Shown in pieces: positions 51,033 to 56,807 of a DNA stretch of 64,000 nucleotides (position 1 is its first letter; each line of letters starts with the position of its first letter). The notes beneath the pieces are model-generated. The model was not told the DNA's origin. It saw nothing but the letters and a program-made list of their open reading frames with translations, and searched no databases. This DNA comes from Clostridia bacterium. GTDB taxonomy: Bacteria > Bacillota > Clostridia > Oscillospirales > RGIG8002. The translations under genes were made by a program, and so were the position numbers. Location: assembly GCA_017620395.1 (NCBI GenBank), contig JAFZQJ010000034.1, forward strand, positions 1,395 through 65,394, written 5' to 3'.

Positions 51033-53180
51033 GTGAAAAGAATAACTGCAATCATAATGTGCGTTGTATTTTTGATGTCGGTCGGTGTCTTGAATGTGAG
51101 CGCATCATATATTGATGAGCGTTGGCAATGGTCAAATGACGTTCAACAGGAACGTTGTACATATCGTGTTTGGCATGAGGCGTACGAAAGACTTGGTATA
51201 AGCTTACCGGACACGTGGGGGAATGCTGCTACTTGGTATGATAATGCGCCATATGACGGATATCCAGTTGATAATAACCCATCTGCAAATTCTATTGCTT
51301 GCTGGGATGATGGGGGTTGGGGACATGTCGCATATGTAACAAGCGTTGATTCGGAGTGGGTTTATTATAGACATGCGGGGTTTGACCCCAGTGATAGGTA
51401 TACTGGCTATTGGTACAATGACGATAAAAGAAGAATAGACAATATGGGATGGGATTTCGAGGGATATATTCACCTCACCTCTTTAGATCTCGGCTCTGAT
51501 TTCTACGCGTTCATAATCAAGCAGGATTCGTGGAAGCACCTTGCGGCCGAAAACGGCAATGTTCAGTTACCGTCGACCGGAAATAACAGCTCCGATCCAA
51601 AGCAGATATGGCACTTTATCAGGATGTCTGACGGCTCTTACAAAATCGTCAACGAGTTTTACGATATGTGTATGGATGCGGCGAATTTCGGCACAAGCAA
51701 CGGTACCAACGTCGGATTGTGTACGAGCAACGATTCTACCGCGCAAAGATGGTTCATTTCAACTATGGGCAACGGATACGCGCTTTCGCCGGCATATACG
51801 AGTATGGTTATAGACGTCACCGGCGGCGTGAACGATCCCGGTACCAATGTGCAGCTTTGGCAGTCCGGAAACACGTCGGCTCAGGCTTTTTCGATATACA
51901 AACTCACGGAGGACGGCGTTACCTATTCCAAGCCCGCGAAGCCGTCCGCGGTGACGGTGAACGCTTCGGTTTCCGCCAATAAGGTTTTGAGTATCTCGTG
52001 GAGTCAGTCGCCTCTGAAGGGATCGTTTGACGCGCGCGCATACGACGTTTATATCTATAAAGACAGCGCGAGCAGCACGCCGATCCATACAAAAATGAGT
52101 TTGAGCGCCACTTCATATACATACAGCCTCCCTTCTGAAGGAACGTATTACGTTAAGGTTGCCGCCGTCAACACGAAGTATTACGGTTGGTATACGTTCT
52201 CCTCGACGGTAAAGGTGGAAACGAAGAGCGACTTGCTAGGAGATATGGACGGCGACGCTTCTATAACCGTTTCGGACGCGCTCGCCGCGCTGAGGATTGC
52301 CGCAAGGCTTGCGAGCGCCACGAGCAGCGTGAAGAAGATAGCCGACGTGGATTTCGACGGAACGATAACGGTTTCCGACGCGCTTGCGATACTGCGCGTC
52401 GCCGCGAGGCTTGCCGGTACGAAGACGCTCACCGTACAGTCGCTGAGCAGCTGTACGCTGTATCCCGAATGCTATAAGAACTATGCCGTTTCTTCCAACT
52501 ATACGGACGCCCGCGTCGAGTGGTTGAGCAGCGACGCGTCCGTCGCAACCGTCGGCAGCAACGGCAAGGTAACGGCTAAAAGCGCCGGAACGGCGACGAT
52601 AACCGCAAAGGTTTCCGTTATCGGTCAGCAGAAATCCGTTTCGTATACCGTCACGGTCAAGAACCCGAGCGTTGTTTTGGCGCCTGCTTCTCAGAGCACG
52701 TCTTATGACGCGTATTCTAACAACAGAGTCATTATCAGCGGTCATATCGCTTACAAGTGCCCGCTTCCTTCCGTGACGACGGACGTCAACGAGGCATATT
52801 GCGGCGACAGCCGCGTGAGCACTTCAAGTATTACAAAGGAGATAACGTCCGGTGATGGTAAGTTCAGCGGCGAATACTTCTATTCGTATCAGCCCGGCAC
52901 GATAAAGATCAAGTATTCATTCTCCGTCGCCGGCAAGACTTACAGCAGCACTTATACCTGCAACCTCACGCTGACGCGCACCAATCCGGATATGGGGCAG
53001 TATATAAGAAGCTCGACTTCGACGTCTTCGACGAATCTGGGTATGGTACCCGCGAATACGACTTATGTGATAACGCAGGTCGCGGTCACCGGAACGGTAG
53101 GAGAGTCGGGATGCCAGGTCTGGGGATACACGACCTATGGCGGCGTATCCGGATGGACTTTGATCGAGTATTGGCAGTAA
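51033..53180 (+). CDS. Secreted multidomain cell-wall hydrolase: CHAP + ricin-type lectin + Fn3-like + internal dockerin + Big_2-like + SH3-like C-terminus
   Basis: GTG start after an AAGGAGAG SD, then a signal peptide. CHAP Cys/His context (..ERCTYRVW.., GNAATWYD, GWGHVAYVTSV). QxW-type lectin repeats (KQIWHF, AQRWFI, VQLWQS). Dockerin at nt 52239-52418. Big_2 string (SSDASVATVGSNGKVTAKSAGTATITA). Confidence 0.8.
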   Translation: MKRITAIIMCVVFLMSVGVLNVSASYIDERWQWSNDVQQERCTYRVWHEAYERLGISLPDTWGNAATWYDNAPYDGYPVDNNPSANSIACWDDGGWGHVAYVTSVDSEWVYYRHAGFDPSDRYTGYWYNDDKRRIDNMGWDFEGYIHLTSLDLGSDFYAFIIKQDSWKHLAAENGNVQLPSTGNNSSDPKQIWHFIRMSDGSYKIVNEFYDMCMDAANFGTSNGTNVGLCTSNDSTAQRWFISTMGNGYALSPAYTSMVIDVTGGVNDPGTNVQLWQSGNTSAQAFSIYKLTEDGVTYSKPAKPSAVTVNASVSANKVLSISWSQSPLKGSFDARAYDVYIYKDSASSTPIHTKMSLSATSYTYSLPSEGTYYVKVAAVNTKYYGWYTFSSTVKVETKSDLLGDMDGDASITVSDALAALRIAARLASATSSVKKIADVDFDGTITVSDALAILRVAARLAGTKTLTVQSLSSCTLYPECYKNYAVSSNYTDARVEWLSSDASVATVGSNGKVTAKSAGTATITAKVSVIGQQKSVSYTVTVKNPSVVLAPASQSTSYDAYSNNRVIISGHIAYKCPLPSVTTDVNEAYCGDSRVSTSSITKEITSGDGKFSGEYFYSYQPGTIKIKYSFSVAGKTYSSTYTCNLTLTRTNPDMGQYIRSSTSTSSTNLGMVPANTTYVITQVAVTGTVGESGCQVWGYTTYGGVSGWTLIEYWQ

Positions 53181-53203
53181 GTGATACCGAATAGTTTAAC
53201 AAC

Positions 53204-53231
53204 AAACGCCTCCCGAGCGGGAGGCGTTTTT
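53204..53231. terminator. Bidirectional rho-independent terminator (shared by the CHAP gene and dinB)
   Basis: AAACGCCTCCCG-agc-GGGAGGCGTTTTT. The dinB stop codon lies in the T-tract. Confidence 0.85.
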
Positions 53232-54477
53232 ATATATCGAGATGCGTTTCTATGTGCCGCAGGGGATCGGCGAAGGCGGGCGGGATATACTCGCTCTTCT
53301 TGCGCAGCAGCAGCGAAGCCGGCGTTATCGCGCCCTTGCCGAAGCGGCTGCGGACGCCGTCCGCGGCGCGCTCGAGCGTCTCGGCGCGTTCGTGCCGTCG
53401 GAAGCCGCCGCCGAAGTCGAGCTGCGCGGGGAACTTCTCGTCGCAGAGGTTTATCGCCGTCAGCGTCACCGCGCGTACGGGGCAGCGCCAGTCGTACCGC
53501 TCGCGGAAGAGGCGGAAGCCCGCCTCCGCGAGTTCGCAGGCGCAGGAGGTCGGGTAGCGCGTCGCGGTTTGGTACTGCTCAAAGGCGAGCATGCTGTCCC
53601 GCACGCGCACGGAAACTCCGCGCGCCGCGAGCCCGTTCTGCCGCAGCCGCCTGCCGACGTCCTGCGCCAGATGCAGCAGCATAAGCCGGACCTCCGCGTT
53701 ATCCTTCATATCCGCCGGCGGCGTCTGCCCGTGCCCGACGCTCTTTATCGGGCTGACGTACCCGATCGGCATGACGGGGGAGAGGTCGAGTCCGTTGGCG
53801 TACTGCCAGAGCGTCAGCCCCGCCTTGCCGAAGGCGCGCTGAAGGAAGTCGGGGTTCGTCCGCGCGAGGTCGCCTATCGTGTGGATGCAGTAGCGTTCGA
53901 GCTGCGCGCGGCTGCTGCGCCCGACGCCGAACAGATCCGCCGCGGGAAGCGGCCATATCTTTTCGCGGAAGTCGCGCCCGATCTCCGTCGTCGCGTCAGG
54001 CTTCTTCATATCCGAGCCGAGCTTCGCGAAGATCTTGTTGAAGCTGACGCCGACGGAGATGGTCAGCCCGACCTCCTCGCGCATACGCCGCCGCAGCTCG
54101 TCCGCGATGGCGCGTCCGTCGCCGAAAAGCAGTCTGCTCGCGCTGACGTCGAGCCAGCATTCGTCCATGCCGAAGGGCTCGACGAGGTCGGTGTATTCGG
54201 CGTAAAGCTCCCGCGCCGCGCGCGAGAAGCGCGCGTATTCGCCGTAGTGAGGCGAAACGATGACGAGCTGCGGGCATTTCTTCTGCGCCTGCCATATCGC
54301 CTCCGCCGTCGCCACGCCGAAGCGCTTTGCCTCCTCCGATTTTGCCAACACGATCCCGTGGCGGTCCTCCTTCGAGCCGCAGACGGCGATCGGCAGCCCT
54401 TTCAGCGACGGGTCGAGCACCGCCTCGATAGAGGCGAAGCAGTTGTTTATGTCGCAGTGCAGTATCGTCCTGTCCAC
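53230..54477 (-). CDS. dinB: Y-family DNA polymerase IV
   Basis: GTG 54477 lies after an AAGGAGGG SD. The N-terminus ..ILHCDINNCFASIE.. is the Y-family catalytic motif, and the protein is 415 aa. The track's longer ORF is rejected. Confidence 0.9.
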   Translation of the reverse strand: MDRTILHCDINNCFASIEAVLDPSLKGLPIAVCGSKEDRHGIVLAKSEEAKRFGVATAEAIWQAQKKCPQLVIVSPHYGEYARFSRAARELYAEYTDLVEPFGMDECWLDVSASRLLFGDGRAIADELRRRMREEVGLTISVGVSFNKIFAKLGSDMKKPDATTEIGRDFREKIWPLPAADLFGVGRSSRAQLERYCIHTIGDLARTNPDFLQRAFGKAGLTLWQYANGLDLSPVMPIGYVSPIKSVGHGQTPPADMKDNAEVRLMLLHLAQDVGRRLRQNGLAARGVSVRVRDSMLAFEQYQTATRYPTSCACELAEAGFRLFRERYDWRCPVRAVTLTAINLCDEKFPAQLDFGGGFRRHERAETLERAADGVRSRFGKGAITPASLLLRKKSEYIPPAFADPLRHIETHLDI

Positions 54478-54597
54478 GCGCAGCCCTCCTTTCCGCGAAA
54501 ACGCGTCCGCTTTCCGCCGCCGCTTCCGCAAAAACGGCGTCAGCAAACAAGCCTTCGCCGTCTGTCCGGAAATTCGTGAAGTTTTTTCAAAAACCCC

Positions 54598-54626
54598 TTG
54601 ACAAATGGTGAAAGTCATTGTAATAT
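54598..54626 (+). promoter_or_regulatory. Putative promoter P(xre): TTGACA-17-TAATAT, with a GTGAAAG site inside the spacer
   Basis: Read directly from the sequence. It points toward xre/immA. Confidence 0.5.
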
Positions 54627-54629
54627 AAT

Positions 54630-54647
54630 GGTGAAACTTGTTTCACC
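54630..54647. promoter_or_regulatory. Perfect palindrome GGTGAAAC-tt-GTTTCACC (candidate operator)
   Basis: 8-bp arms located between the two predicted -10 elements. Confidence 0.6.
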
Positions 54648-54664
54648 AACGCTCTGTACCTATT

Positions 54665-54693
54665 ATTTTAGGTGAAACTAAGTTCATTGTCAA
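54665..54693 (-). promoter_or_regulatory. Putative promoter P(dinB): minus strand TTGACA-17-TAAAAT, whose spacer is the GGTGAAACTAAGTTCAT site
   Basis: Read directly from the sequence. It points toward dinB. Confidence 0.5.
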
Positions 54694-54703
54694 GTGAAAG
54701 ATG

Positions 54704-54719
54704 ATGAAATTACTTTCAT
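54704..54719. promoter_or_regulatory. Palindrome ATGAAA-ttac-TTTCAT (candidate operator)
   Basis: 6-bp arms, preceded by AGTGAAAG at 54694. Confidence 0.45.
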
Positions 54720-54753
54720 ATTTTTGCCGTTTTTATACGGGGGAGGAAACGAA

Positions 54754-55146
54754 ATGCTTTTCGGAGAGAAACTCAGGGAGCTGCGCAAAAAGGAAGGGCT
54801 GACGCAGGAGGCGCTCGCCGCCGAGATCGACGTTACCAAGCGCACGCTCATCAACTACGAGAGCGGCCGCTGCTACCCGAAGCAGGCGGAGATTGTCATG
54901 CGTCTTGCGAAGCGCTTTTCCGTCAGCGCGGACTATCTCATGAGCGAGGCAGACGAGTTCGTCGCGCAGGCGCACGCCCGCGGCGGCGCGCGCGGCATGG
55001 CGCAGGCGAAGGAGCTTGTCGCGGAGGTCAGCGGACTTTTCGCGGGCGGGGAGCTCGCGGACGAGGACAAGGACGCTGTCCTGCGCGCGATAATCGACGC
55101 CTACTGGGACGCGAAAAACGATAACAGGAAATACGCGAGGTCGTGA
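54754..55146 (+). CDS. XRE-family HTH transcriptional regulator
   Basis: ATG 54754 follows a GGGGGAGG SD. The HTH_3 signature is ..GEKLRELRKKEGLTQEALAAEIDVTKRTLINYESG.. (130 aa). Confidence 0.88.
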   Translation: MLFGEKLRELRKKEGLTQEALAAEIDVTKRTLINYESGRCYPKQAEIVMRLAKRFSVSADYLMSEADEFVAQAHARGGARGMAQAKELVAEVSGLFAGGELADEDKDAVLRAIIDAYWDAKNDNRKYARS

Positions 55147-55152
55147 TCCACA

Positions 55153-55650
55153 ATGAGCTATATCGAGTTGGAAGCGGAGGCGCTTGCGGCGAAATACGGC
55201 ACGCGCGATCCCTTCGAGATAGCGCGTCAGGAGGGGATAGCGGTCTATTTCCGCAATGACTTCACCAAGCTCAAGGGTATGTATAAAGTTATCCTTCGCC
55301 GCCGCTGCGTCTTCATCAACGCCGGACTGCCGCAGGAGGAGATGCGCTATATCTGCGCGCACGAGCTGGGGCACGACAAGCTCCACCGCGCCGCGACCGC
55401 GAAAGCGGGACTCTGCGACTTCGTGATGTTCGACGTGAAAAACAAGCTGGAGTACGAGGCGAATCTTTTCGCCGCGCACCTGCTCATAGACGACCGGCAG
55501 GTCTCCCACGCCGCCGTGAACGGCATGACGGCGCAGGAACTGGCGGCCGCGCTCGGCGTACCCGAAACGCTCGTCACGATAAAGGCGGCGAACTACGAGA
55601 AACGCCGTCAGCATCACGCGCCGCGCGAGCTGAAAAATCCGCTGTATTGA
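55153..55650 (+). CDS. ImmA/IrrE-family (COG2856) zinc metallopeptidase
   Basis: 165 aa with an HEXXH motif (CAHELGHDKLH) and a downstream ..EYEANLFAAHLL.. It starts 6 nt after the xre stop. Confidence 0.85.
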   Translation: MSYIELEAEALAAKYGTRDPFEIARQEGIAVYFRNDFTKLKGMYKVILRRRCVFINAGLPQEEMRYICAHELGHDKLHRAATAKAGLCDFVMFDVKNKLEYEANLFAAHLLIDDRQVSHAAVNGMTAQELAAALGVPETLVTIKAANYEKRRQHHAPRELKNPLY

Positions 55651-55677
55651 CGGCGTTATTGTGAGGAGCGCAGTCTT

Positions 55678-55922
55678 TCTTGGCTCCCTCTGAGGAGGGA
55701 GCTGTCGAGGGCGGCGGTAAGCCGTCCGAGACTGAGGGAGAGATAACGTCGATTTGCGATTTGCCGGGAGTCTGTTCCGAAGACGGCGAATTATCTTATG
55801 TGTACTTATCCCTCATCTCCGTCGCGGCGCTTATACATAAGGAGGGCTGTCGTTATCTCTCCCTCCGTCTTGCCTCGGCTTAAGCCTCGGCAATCCACCT
55901 CCCTCCTCAGAGGGAGGCAAGA
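55678..55922. mobile_element. MITE-like element: ~70-bp imperfect terminal inverted repeats flanking a ~100-bp core, no ORF
   Basis: The left arm (55678-55748) aligns with the reverse complement of the right arm (55851-55922). Identical blocks are ctccctctgaggagggag and gagggagagataacg. Confidence 0.65.
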
Positions 55923-55945
55923 ACATACTTCTGAACTCTACACTC

Positions 55946-55977
55946 AAAAACGGAAGGAACGCGTTCCTTCCGTTTTT
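55946..55977. terminator. Bidirectional rho-independent terminator
   Basis: AAAAACGGAAGGAACGCGTTCCTTCCGTTTTT. Confidence 0.85.
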
Positions 55978-56038
55978 CGTTCTAATCCGGACTTGCCCTC
56001 AATAGAATGTAGCACAAGCTGTTGAAAGGGTGAGAACC

Positions 56039-56236
56039 GTGAAAAAGAGCATATTATCGCATATCGGCGTCGGCACGGTGCGCGTCGCCGCCGCGGCGCT
56101 GATAACGGCCGTGCTGCTCGCGCTGCGGCTCGTCGGCGCGGATACGTCGCCGGTGAAACGCGAGATCGCCTCCGGCGGAAGCGCGATGGGGGTGGTGAGG
56201 TACGTTGTCGGCAAGTATAACGAGTTCACGGCGTAG
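56039..56236 (+). CDS. Hypothetical small membrane protein
   Basis: 65 aa from GTG 56039 (GGGTGAG SD) with one TM helix. It overlaps the next gene by 32 nt. Confidence 0.35.
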   Translation: MKKSILSHIGVGTVRVAAAALITAVLLALRLVGADTSPVKREIASGGSAMGVVRYVVGKYNEFTA

Positions 56237-56807
56237 CGCGCTGCGCTTCGACGTCGGCGTGCCGTTCCTGCTTTCGCTCGGCGCGCTGATGTTCGTCAGC
56301 GGCGGGCTCGCCGTCTGGGCGGCGCTCGCCGCGCTCACGCACGAAGCGGCGCATCTGCTCGCGATATACGCCTGCGGTTTTCGCGTGCGGCGCGTCTCGC
56401 TCCACGGCGGAGGCGTGCGTATGGAGCTGAACTCCGAGCCGCCGAAGGGGAAAGCGGCGCTGATCCTGGCGTCCGGATGCTTCGGCAACCTGCTCGCCGC
56501 CGGCGCGGTAAAGGCGTTCGGCGGCGCGTCGCTGCGCGCTTATATCTTCTTCGGCGCGAACCTGCTTCTGTGCCTGCTGAATATCCTGCCGCACTCCTCG
56601 CTTGACGGCGGCAAGCTGCTCCGCCTCGCGCTCGGCGAAAGGGGGAGCGCGGCGAAAGTCGCGTTCTGCGCGGACGTCGCCGTGACCTTCCTGCTGACGG
56701 CGGCGGGCGCGATGATCTTTCTCAAATGCGGCAAAAACCCGACCGCGCTGCTGCTCGGGCTCTGCCTTGTCGCGAAATTGCCGGTTTTCGGCAAAAAAAG
56801 CTATTGA
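56205..56807 (+). CDS. Site-2 protease family (M50) membrane metalloprotease, short SpoIVFB-like form without CBS domain
   Basis: Has HEAAH in the first TM region and the NILPHSSLDGG motif. The TTG start (GGTGAGG SD) is uncertain. Confidence 0.75.
   Translation: MSASITSSRRSALRFDVGVPFLLSLGALMFVSGGLAVWAALAALTHEAAHLLAIYACGFRVRRVSLHGGGVRMELNSEPPKGKAALILASGCFGNLLAAGAVKAFGGASLRAYIFFGANLLLCLLNILPHSSLDGGKLLRLALGERGSAAKVAFCADVAVTFLLTAAGAMIFLKCGKNPTALLLGLCLVAKLPVFGKKSY

Follow-up and report, generated by a model that had tools for sequence, protein, structure and literature searches.

What controls a DNA polymerase gene that lies back to back with the gene for a phage-type repressor? Error-prone polymerases are usually thought to be controlled by LexA. 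The question was raised by a stretch of 64,000 nucleotides, referred to here as the window, from Clostridia bacterium (Oscillospirales, RGIG8002; GenBank assembly GCA_017620395.1, contig JAFZQJ010000034.1). In this stretch, a 276-bp gap with a control interval inside it separates two divergent genes: dinB (positions 53230 to 54477, minus strand), encoding a 415-amino-acid Y-family DNA polymerase, and xre (positions 54754 to 55146, plus strand), encoding a 130-amino-acid XRE-family helix-turn-helix (HTH) repressor. A third gene, here called immA (positions 55153 to 55650, plus strand), starts 6 nt past the xre stop codon and encodes a 165-amino-acid M78 (ImmA/IrrE) metallopeptidase with the motif HELGH. 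An initial annotation of the gap had proposed a single repressor acting on two crossing promoters at repeated GTGAAA sites. It had not taken in the ImmA/IrrE protease, with which the simple repressor picture becomes one of a cleavable switch of the ImmR/ImmA type. Comparison with homologous loci led us to the conclusion that this region is probably the operator/promoter core of such a switch, controlling dinB and with competing head-on promoters as part of the design.

Predicted crossing promoters between dinB and xre

The interval from position 54580 to 54753 was the only A+T-rich part of the gap, with a G+C content of 33% compared to ~65% in the flanks and 60% in the dinB-side part of the gap (54478 to 54580). 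A promoter scan detected three promoter-like sites versus 0.2 expected. The predicted xre-immA promoter, P(+), occupies positions 54598 to 54626 of the plus strand (TTGACA at 54598 to 54603, a 17-nt spacer, and TAATAT at 54621 to 54626) and has 10 of 12 matches to the consensus. The predicted dinB promoter, P(-), occupies positions 54665 to 54693 of the minus strand (TTGACA at 54693 to 54688, a 17-nt spacer, and TAAAAT at 54670 to 54665) and has 11 of 12 matches. Both were found where the initial annotation had put them, with TTGACA -35 hexamers and 17-nt spacers, and each spacer contained a GTGAAA copy, as described there. No further dinB promoter was detected in the scan. TATAAT at positions 54624 to 54629 was considered as the -10 hexamer of P(+) and dropped, as the spacer would be 20 nt long and the relatives keep TA(A/T)TAT at 17 nt.

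With transcript starts set, as a prediction, at 7 nt past each -10 hexamer, transcription would begin at ~54633 on the plus strand and ~54658 on the minus strand. The 5' ends would overlap by ~26 nt, and the leaders would be ~121 nt long for xre (to the ATG at 54754) and ~181 nt long for dinB (to the GTG at 54477), in agreement with the earlier estimates of a ~25-bp separation and ~120- and ~180-nt leaders. The span from one -35 hexamer to the other is 96 bp.

The arrangement was then followed across the family. A search with the XRE protein yielded 110 homologs, and an alignment of 24 was used to retrieve 80 genomic loci (Clostridia, Lachnospiraceae, Oscillospiraceae, Selenomonas, and others) and 80 loci on viral-type contigs. 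For each XRE gene, 300 bp of upstream sequence was scanned with the promoter rule used for the window. A crossing pair was defined as a plus-strand promoter on the left and a minus-strand promoter on the right, with 18 to 38 bp between the -10 hexamers. Such pairs were present in 49 of 81 genome regions and 69 of 80 viral-contig regions. Cultured bacteria with the crossing design include Butyricicoccus porcorum BB10 (L044), Lacrimispora amygdalina DSM 12857 (L069), Pseudobacteroides cellulosolvens DSM 2933 (L033 and L052), and Lachnospiraceae bacterium TWA4 (L067). After removal of duplicates, 95 of 136 regions had a crossing pair, compared to 0.05 in shuffled sequences, and 8 had a back-to-back pair; the face-to-face geometry put forward in the initial annotation is thus a recurrent one. 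The minus-strand -35 hexamer was 40 to 60 bp from the XRE start codon in most loci (range, 22 to 200 bp). As most loci could not accommodate a second XRE promoter in this space, the geometry is no artifact of a wrong choice of promoter. The predicted transcripts overlapped at their 5' ends by 13 to 26 nt across the family. Among the 95 pairs, a 12-of-12 consensus match was observed for the minus-strand (cargo) promoter in 46 and for the plus-strand promoter in 12, and of the two promoters, the one for the cargo was closer to the consensus in 54 regions and farther from it in 17. An M78 protease gene was next after the XRE gene in 78 of the 80 genome loci and 75 of the 80 viral-contig loci.

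Five putative operators overlie the two promoters

GTGAAA occurs on the plus strand at positions 54608, 54631, 54672, and 54694, with an inverted fifth copy at 54641 to 54646 (minus strand). The four direct copies had been recognized previously with coordinates that were each 1 too high, and their spacings of 23, 41, and 22 bp had been given correctly. Five copies in the 174-bp A+T-rich interval (54580 to 54753) compare to a maximum of three and a mean of 0.12 in 100,000 composition-matched shuffles, and elsewhere in the window no 100-bp stretch contained more than two. A repeat finder indicated that the repeating unit is 16 bp long, GTGAAA-N4-TTTCAC, of which a single copy is perfect and the other four have a flaw in one or both halves. 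The sites are preferably taken as a set of five predicted 16-bp operators, O1 to O5, arrayed over the two near-consensus promoters.

Putative operator O1 (54608 to 54623, plus strand; GTGAAAgtcaTTGTAA) has a perfect left half and a degenerate right half; it lies in the P(+) spacer and reaches into the first three bases of the -10 hexamer. The core of O2 (54631 to 54646; GTGAAActtgTTTCAC) is perfect. The palindrome GGTGAAAC-tt-GTTTCACC at 54630 to 54647, which had been noted as perfect and is so, extends to 20 bp (54629 to 54648) with the arms TGGTGAAAC-tt-GTTTCACCA and is unique in the window. O2 is situated between the two -10 hexamers, where it would cover the predicted plus-strand start and positions ~+11 to +30 of the minus-strand transcript. 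O3 (54672 to 54687, plus strand; GTGAAActaaGTTCAT) has two mismatches to the 16-mer and covers 16 of the 17 P(-) spacer bases. O4 (54694 to 54699, plus strand) is a predicted half-site, GTGAAA, which adjoins the -35 hexamer of P(-) and is 10 bp ahead of O5's left half. O5 (54704 to 54719; ATGAAAttacTTTCAT) is a palindrome of variant half-sites located upstream of P(-), within the xre leader at ~+72 to +87. The second palindrome of the initial annotation, ATGAAA-ttac-TTTCAT at 54704 to 54719, is this site; it is perfect, as claimed, and is built on ATGAAA, with none of the four GTGAAA copies inside it.

The sites had also been described as phased by whole helical turns. This description held within each promoter half (~22 to 23 bp), where the phasing follows from the positions of the sites relative to the -35 and -10 hexamers. 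It did not hold for the 41-bp spacing between the halves, which is not a conserved helical phase because the distance between promoter halves varies continuously across the family (18 to 38 bp between -10 hexamers).

Conservation was examined in an alignment of the window with four close relatives, whose XRE proteins are 77 to 91% identical to that of the window. Both -35 hexamers, most -10 positions, and the GTGAAA of O1 were invariant in the five sequences. A single base of O2, the first of the four spacer bases (54637), was variable. In O3 the GAAA core of the left half and part of the right half were invariant, as was TGTCAAGTGAAA, which comprises the -35 hexamer of P(-) and O4. The position of O5 reads GTGAAAatcaTTTCC in the relatives. 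The stretch from O2 to the -10 hexamer of P(-) and the G+C-rich dinB leader were variable, with insertions and deletions. The GTGAAA sites and hexamers thus formed invariant blocks in all four relatives, which is the conservation that the initial annotation had proposed looking for. Invariant hexamers and putative operators amid a freely changing leader are the pattern that purifying selection on a control region is predicted to leave.

In more distant loci the same four slots were filled by other words, such as ACGCAA-N5-TTGCGT, ACGAAA-N4-TTTCGT, CGAAGT-N3-ACTTCG, GTGTAA-N4/5-TTTCAC, and GGGAAGT. After masking of the hexamers, the most frequent 5-mer in a locus was present in 4.0 copies, compared to 2.5 in shuffled sequences, and in the 49 genome loci it fell in the O2 slot in 40, the O4 slot in 38, the O1 slot in 34, and the O3 slot in 30. 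A palindrome began 2 to 5 nt past the plus-strand -10 hexamer in most loci. A metagenome scan for further regulon members with the O2 core GTGAAANTTGTTTCAC, a pattern too short for a collection of that kind, matched at least 120 stretches, and none encoding an XRE, ImmA, or DinB relative was among the matches listed. In one locus (L032), the 200 bp that separate the crossing promoters from the xre start hold an inserted block of ~50-bp tandem repeats (GTGAAAcaccctccgggtgtaactggatgccgtg...), each unit with a G+C-rich hairpin.

The operator word changes with the XRE recognition helix

The recognition helix VTKRTLINYE was paired with GTGAAA-N4-TTTCAC in the window and L001 and also in three loci (L002, L003, and L005) with only 55 to 58% protein identity, where the operator reads GTGAAAgttgTTTCAC. 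Helices of the VS(L)RT..NYE type were paired with ACGCAA and those of the V(S/T)xRTYQNYE type with ACGAAA. With identity in the rest of the protein held fixed, the 5-mer profiles of the control regions became more alike as helix identity increased (partial correlation, 0.33). As the motif changes along with the recognition helix, the neighboring XRE protein, rather than LexA, is the likely binder of the GTGAAA sites. The single repressor of the initial annotation is retained in this form, on comparative grounds, from the constancy of the slots and the tracking of the motif with the helix. Taken together, the family-wide comparison strongly backs the prediction of one repressor and two crossing promoters.

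The repressor/protease module resembles ImmR/ImmA

The XRE protein matched Pfam HTH_19 (8e-15) and HTH_3 (2e-11), and the protease matched Peptidase_M78 (1.2e-16) and the metallo-protease family phrog_87 (2.7e-30). An AlphaFold2 model of the repressor (predicted local distance difference test score, 87.6) consisted of five HTH helices, a long helix (residues 65 to 95), a loop (96 to 102), and a last helix (103 to 125). The HTH of the model superposed on the P22 c2, ImmR, and 434 domains at 0.9 to 1.5 A. The best sequence match among solved structures was the DNA-binding domain of ImmR from ICEBs1 (7t8i; E value, 3.5e-6). Residues F96-A97-G98-G99 were invariant in 24 diverse homologs and lie inside the sole loop of the model between helices 65 to 95 and 103 to 125.

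In ICEBs1, ImmA cuts ImmR at F95-M96, in a linker between two predicted C-terminal helices (PMC8960796). The position of this site matches that of the F96-A97 loop in the model, and the phenylalanine is shared. As in ICEBs1, the cargo diverges from a promoter that is predicted here to be under repressor control. The window's repressor is within the size range of this group (~125 to 135 amino acids, with an N-terminal XRE HTH), and an M78 (COG2856) metallopeptidase with HExxH is encoded next to it in the same operon. The two systems differ in that the window has no integrase, excisionase, or transfer genes and the cargo is one chromosomal Y-family polymerase. The repressor shares little identity with ImmR, and only over the HTH in the solved fragment; no recombinase was found beside the cassette in the window or in two close relatives (L083 and L084).

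The only full-length match to a solved structure was the repressor of phage Phi106, of the phi105 type, in PDB entry 9sf2 (residues 4 to 125 versus 6 to 127; E value, 1.7e-4), which is bound there to the arbitrium anti-repressor AimX. The alignment takes in the L-x-L/F-x-G-G loop and the last helix, at 23% identity, and the Phi106 protein is inactivated by a small protein and not by cleavage. It is known, then, that this repressor fold can be switched off by a small protein (Phi106) as well as by cleavage (ImmR). In the unannotated phi105 record, no consensus crossing pair was found by the related repressor-like gene, with promoter matches only at chance level.

DdrO/IrrE of Deinococcus is a further M78/COG2856 protease and XRE repressor pair; in published accounts, the protease inactivates the repressor and DNA damage genes are controlled independently of LexA (PMC6868357, PMC12828697). 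Just 62 to 65 N-terminal columns of the window's repressor aligned with DdrO (6jq1 and 6rnx), its protease has the M78 domain only, and its two genes are adjacent and predicted to be autoregulated. Neither DdrO's C-terminal dimerization domain nor a multidomain IrrE protease was found here. IrrE is larger, with extra domains, and the operator of DdrO is the 17-bp RDRM motif. The putative operator described here is not that motif. Since DdrO aligns over the HTH only and the protease is without the extra domains of IrrE, the module is classed, by sequence, as ImmR/ImmA-like rather than DdrO/IrrE-like. DdiA, an XRE damage response regulator of Myxococcus, was considered as an analog and dropped, as it has no control of dinB and no protease partner.

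Head-on promoters have been predicted in related modules: two prophages of Clostridium clostridioforme LM41, phi5 and phi12, have ImmR/ImmA-like lysogeny modules with program-predicted convergent intergenic promoters, for which interference as in coliphage 186 was suggested (PMC11318856). These are likewise clostridial modules with a predicted convergent pair, and the likeness is one of module type. That account covers two prophages, by prediction only, with no operators and no polymerase cargo, whereas the layout described here spans the family (95 of 136 regions) and comes with operator slots and with covariation of helix and operator.

Further parallels are the face-to-face promoters pR/pL of coliphage 186 and Pe/Pc of P2, in which one repressor acts on both, the lytic promoter is stronger, and interference is part of the design. 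The predicted arrangement resembles that of coliphage 186 in its facing promoters, the better consensus of the cargo promoter, and the single putative repressor. In 186 the starts are ~62 bp apart and converge, while here the predicted starts lie 13 to 26 nt past each other and the polymerase footprints overlap, so that competition for binding would be favored over collision. The repressor here also belongs to a different family and is proposed to be removed by a partner protease.

The leaders and the start of dinB

The predicted dinB leader (54478 to 54658, minus strand) includes the G+C-rich, variable part of the gap (54478 to 54580), which is noncoding. Large insertions and deletions in this leader among close relatives are not multiples of three. 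A 462-amino-acid dinB reading frame from the ATG at 54618 was dropped because the extension is unconserved and the relatives' indels are of this kind. The public calls for dinB in relatives (445 to 451 amino acids; L081, 1107 to 2462; L082, 287 to 1642; L083, 1094 to 2431; compared with window positions 54478 to 54618) start upstream, within the control region, and are probably too long for the same reasons. The GTG start at 54477 is preceded by AGGAGG, and the ATG of xre follows GGAGG at 54742 to 54746 (plus strand), read from the sequence as a ribosome-binding site 7 nt ahead of it. The DinB product matched Pfam IMS (2.3e-40) and IMS_C (2e-18), carries the MDE catalytic motif, and matched the NCBIfam DNA polymerase IV models at 2.6e-101 at best, under the curated cutoff.

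Compared to shuffled sequences, the fold of the dinB leader was somewhat more stable (z = -2.6) and that of the xre leader was not (z = -1.8), and no defined RNA element was indicated by the folds of either. A permissive Rfam scan of positions 53000 to 56500 gave nothing in the control region and only two weak leader-like matches at 53183 to 53253. On the minus strand, a hairpin in the dinB leader (arms at 54524 to 54539 and 54556 to 54571) reads CGGCG...CGCCG, followed by UUUUUG. L001 and L084 retain this segment, L081 lacks it, and L083 has an altered form; it may act as a leader attenuator or be without function.

Cargo genes and genomic setting

In L083 and L084, dinB, xre, and immA are flanked by a V-ATPase subunit D gene on one side and an aminotransferase gene on the other. 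This order recurs in the window, which has two further genes: an M50-like gene and, between the V-ATPase subunit D gene and dinB, a gene at 51033 to 53180 whose 715-amino-acid product has CHAP, ricin-B lectin, Big_2, and dockerin domains. As the ATPase gene directly adjoins dinB in L083 and L084, the CHAP/ricin gene is an insertion particular to the lineage of the window. Neither recombinase nor phage genes were found near the cassette in the window, so it is chromosomal in that lineage.

A strong hairpin at 53204 to 53229 (AAACGCCTCCCGAGCGGGAGGCGTTT) has an 11-pair stem with 7 G-C pairs, a run of A before it, and a run of T after it. Lying where the 3' ends of dinB and the convergent CHAP/ricin gene meet, it probably acts as a two-way terminator, which would make dinB monocistronic and the cargo a single gene. 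The weak Rfam matches, which are Phe_leader-like and on both strands, were at this hairpin. The ~550 bp between immA and the M50-like gene (55651 to 56204) had no convincing open reading frame and gave no match in Rfam; L084 has a called 62-amino-acid gene at the corresponding place.

Contigs resembling mobile elements also carried the same switch, and the first cargo gene there was often dinB. In L156 an M78-like gene and dinB are on the cargo side and a serine recombinase is encoded a few kb away; in L143 dinB is followed by a gene for a sigma-70 region 4 protein. A divergent dinB was found in 16 or 17 of the 80 genome loci, the largest cargo class, and in 21 of the 80 viral-contig loci, and in six more genome loci dinB was downstream of immA. 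The other divergent cargo in genome loci included a ~195-amino-acid protein without a family match in 12 loci and a second M78-like protein in 10. The former class (L029, L030, L033, L048, L052, L054, L061, L063, L066, L069, L070, and L077) comprises proteins of ~131 to 203 amino acids with no significant Pfam match and an HTH-like C terminus. In the latter, the gene driven by the predicted P(-) encodes a second HExxH protein of either 264 to 289 amino acids (L040, L049, L050, L044, L041, and L055) or 618 to 657 amino acids (L015, L027, L051, and L057). The L040 protein matched Peptidase_M78 at 2.7e-12, and the longest forms were without a Pfam match. Some of these loci had a more distant Y-family polymerase downstream of immA.

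Discussion

The anatomy of the control region suggests how a switch of the ImmR/ImmA type might control dinB. The XRE protein, probably as a dimer, would bind the 16-bp GTGAAA-N4-TTTCAC sites O1 to O5 and close both sigma-A-type promoters. One dimer at O2 could act on both, since it would cover the xre start and lie 11 to 30 nt into the dinB transcript. The dinB side, with O3, O4, and O5 in addition to the shared O2, would be held more tightly, and xre-immA, with O1 and O2, would be subject only to negative autoregulation. With three further sites on the dinB side and one on the xre side, an intermediate level of repressor would allow xre-immA to leak while dinB stays shut. We infer these steps of site binding, dual action at O2, and unequal repression from the anatomy of the region and its comparison among loci.

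On a signal, the cotranscribed ImmA-like protease would cleave the repressor, probably at F96/A97 within the loop that joins its two C-terminal helices, and both promoters would be freed. By analogy with ICEBs1, and with a lesion bypass polymerase as the cargo, the signal would most likely be DNA damage acting via RecA. The 96-bp span between the -35 hexamers and predicted starts ~26 nt past each other suggest that only a single polymerase could be bound at a time, and the better dinB promoter would win until the repressor accumulates again. Such promoter competition would make induction sharp and self-limiting. The protease trigger, the cleavage, and the competition are likewise steps that we infer. 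Antisense pairing of the two 5' ends, as suggested in the initial annotation, is possible over the 13- to 26-nt overlap observed across the family.

Several observations weigh against this account. No pair was found by the scan in 31 of the 136 regions, Selenomonas loci included, and the three loci that share the window's operator at 55 to 58% protein identity (L002, L003, and L005) carry a plus-strand promoter only, so the crossing design appears to be common and not universal. In these three loci O1 and O2 are present, with no minus-strand promoter or nearby divergent cargo, and they appear to represent a purely autoregulatory version of the module. The partial correlation between helix identity and 5-mer profile was computed on nonindependent pairs, for which a P value is not meaningful. 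The leader hairpin and U run at 54524 to 54571 (minus strand) could stop some transcripts before dinB. The analogy with the ICEBs1 trigger may not carry over, as the window's cassette is without an integrase or other mobile-element gene.

Other explanations of the locus were weighed against this evidence. The autoregulatory loci bear directly on the idea that the XRE and M78 proteins are a self-contained pair, for instance a toxin-antitoxin-like COG2856-Xre system, that regulates only itself and has P(-) and dinB as accidental neighbors: those loci have the same operator with no divergent cargo, and COG2856-Xre pairs, with an example in Brucella, have been proposed to be toxin-antitoxin systems. 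We consider this distinctly unlikely for the window, where P(-) is the better conserved and, by consensus match, the stronger of the two promoters and bears the same locus-specific motif in its spacer and upstream flank. In addition, loci of many operator types repeatedly have dinB as their divergent gene, and in close relatives the three genes travel together between the same two housekeeping genes. This constancy of place, kept across relatives with 77 to 95% XRE identity, also argues against a decaying remnant of prophage or conjugative-element immunity with fossil operators on which dinB regulation no longer depends. Such an origin would fit the viral-type contigs on which the switch has a serine recombinase, a second M78-like protein, or a sigma-like regulator for a neighbor, and the diversity of operators between lineages resembles phage heteroimmunity. 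As all three genes are intact, and the hexamers and operators are invariant in a region whose leader is free to change, a remnant of this kind is unlikely.

The other two explanations concern P(-) itself and the protein that controls it. P(-) might mainly give rise to a short RNA that is antisense to the xre mRNA at its 5' end, with little transcription reaching dinB. The predicted 5' ends are complementary over ~26 nt in the window and 13 to 22 nt in most relatives, and the minus-strand transcript has the O2 hairpin followed by UUAUAUU and then the second hairpin with its U run. Neither hairpin has a strong U tract, the leader hairpin is not retained in L081 and L083, no other promoter for dinB was found, and in some relatives the cargo starts near the control core; we regard the explanation as very unlikely. 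Control by a divergent LexA, with the sites as SOS boxes, dinB as an ordinary SOS gene, and the XRE/protease pair unrelated to either, is suggested by the standing of dinB as a classic LexA target in many bacteria. O3 (TGAAActaaGTTCA) is three mismatches from the Bacillota LexA consensus CGAAC-N4-GTTCG, and some operators of the family resemble CGAAC-N4-TTTCG. The best matches to that consensus at 54478 to 54753 had two or three mismatches, none within two mismatches was meaningful, and 59 such chance matches occurred elsewhere in the window. No S24 peptidase domain was detected in the xre or immA product with Pfam or NCBIfam. Loci differ in their motif in step with the XRE recognition helix, and loci with a cargo other than dinB have the same four-slot layout, all of which makes LexA control highly improbable here.

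Control of dinB by an ImmR/ImmA-type switch joins elements that are in part already known, namely, the ImmR/ImmA and DdrO/IrrE mechanisms and the head-on promoters predicted in two C. clostridioforme prophages (PMC11318856). In the literature searched, coverage of which was incomplete, no description was found of such a switch recurrently controlling a Y-family polymerase, including as a minimal chromosomal three-gene cassette, of a family-wide four-slot operator layout on overlapping head-on promoters, or of recognition helices and operators that have diversified in matched fashion. XRE, ImmA, and M78 go unmentioned in a 2026 survey of polymerases in bacteria and the gene neighborhoods around them (PMC12926913).

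The comparison points to a polymerase carried as the payload of a phage-type repressor/protease switch, a link seen again in dozens of Bacillota that are uncultured and in a few that have been cultured. The control region itself would be a natural, highly conserved case in which head-on promoters overlap and share a central operator, and the more than 90 variants in which operator and helix are paired are a resource for the study of promoter competition, repressor specificity, and orthogonal switches. More tentatively, the dinB-immR-immA cassette may be a LexA-independent, protease-gated, and nearly all-or-none means of controlling a mutagenic polymerase in gut and rumen Clostridia, one that moves between phages or conjugative elements and the chromosome and whose operators diversify, as in phage immunity, in a way that avoids cross talk. 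If the switch responds to DNA damage, it would provide gut and rumen bacteria with a second, portable route to induced mutagenesis.

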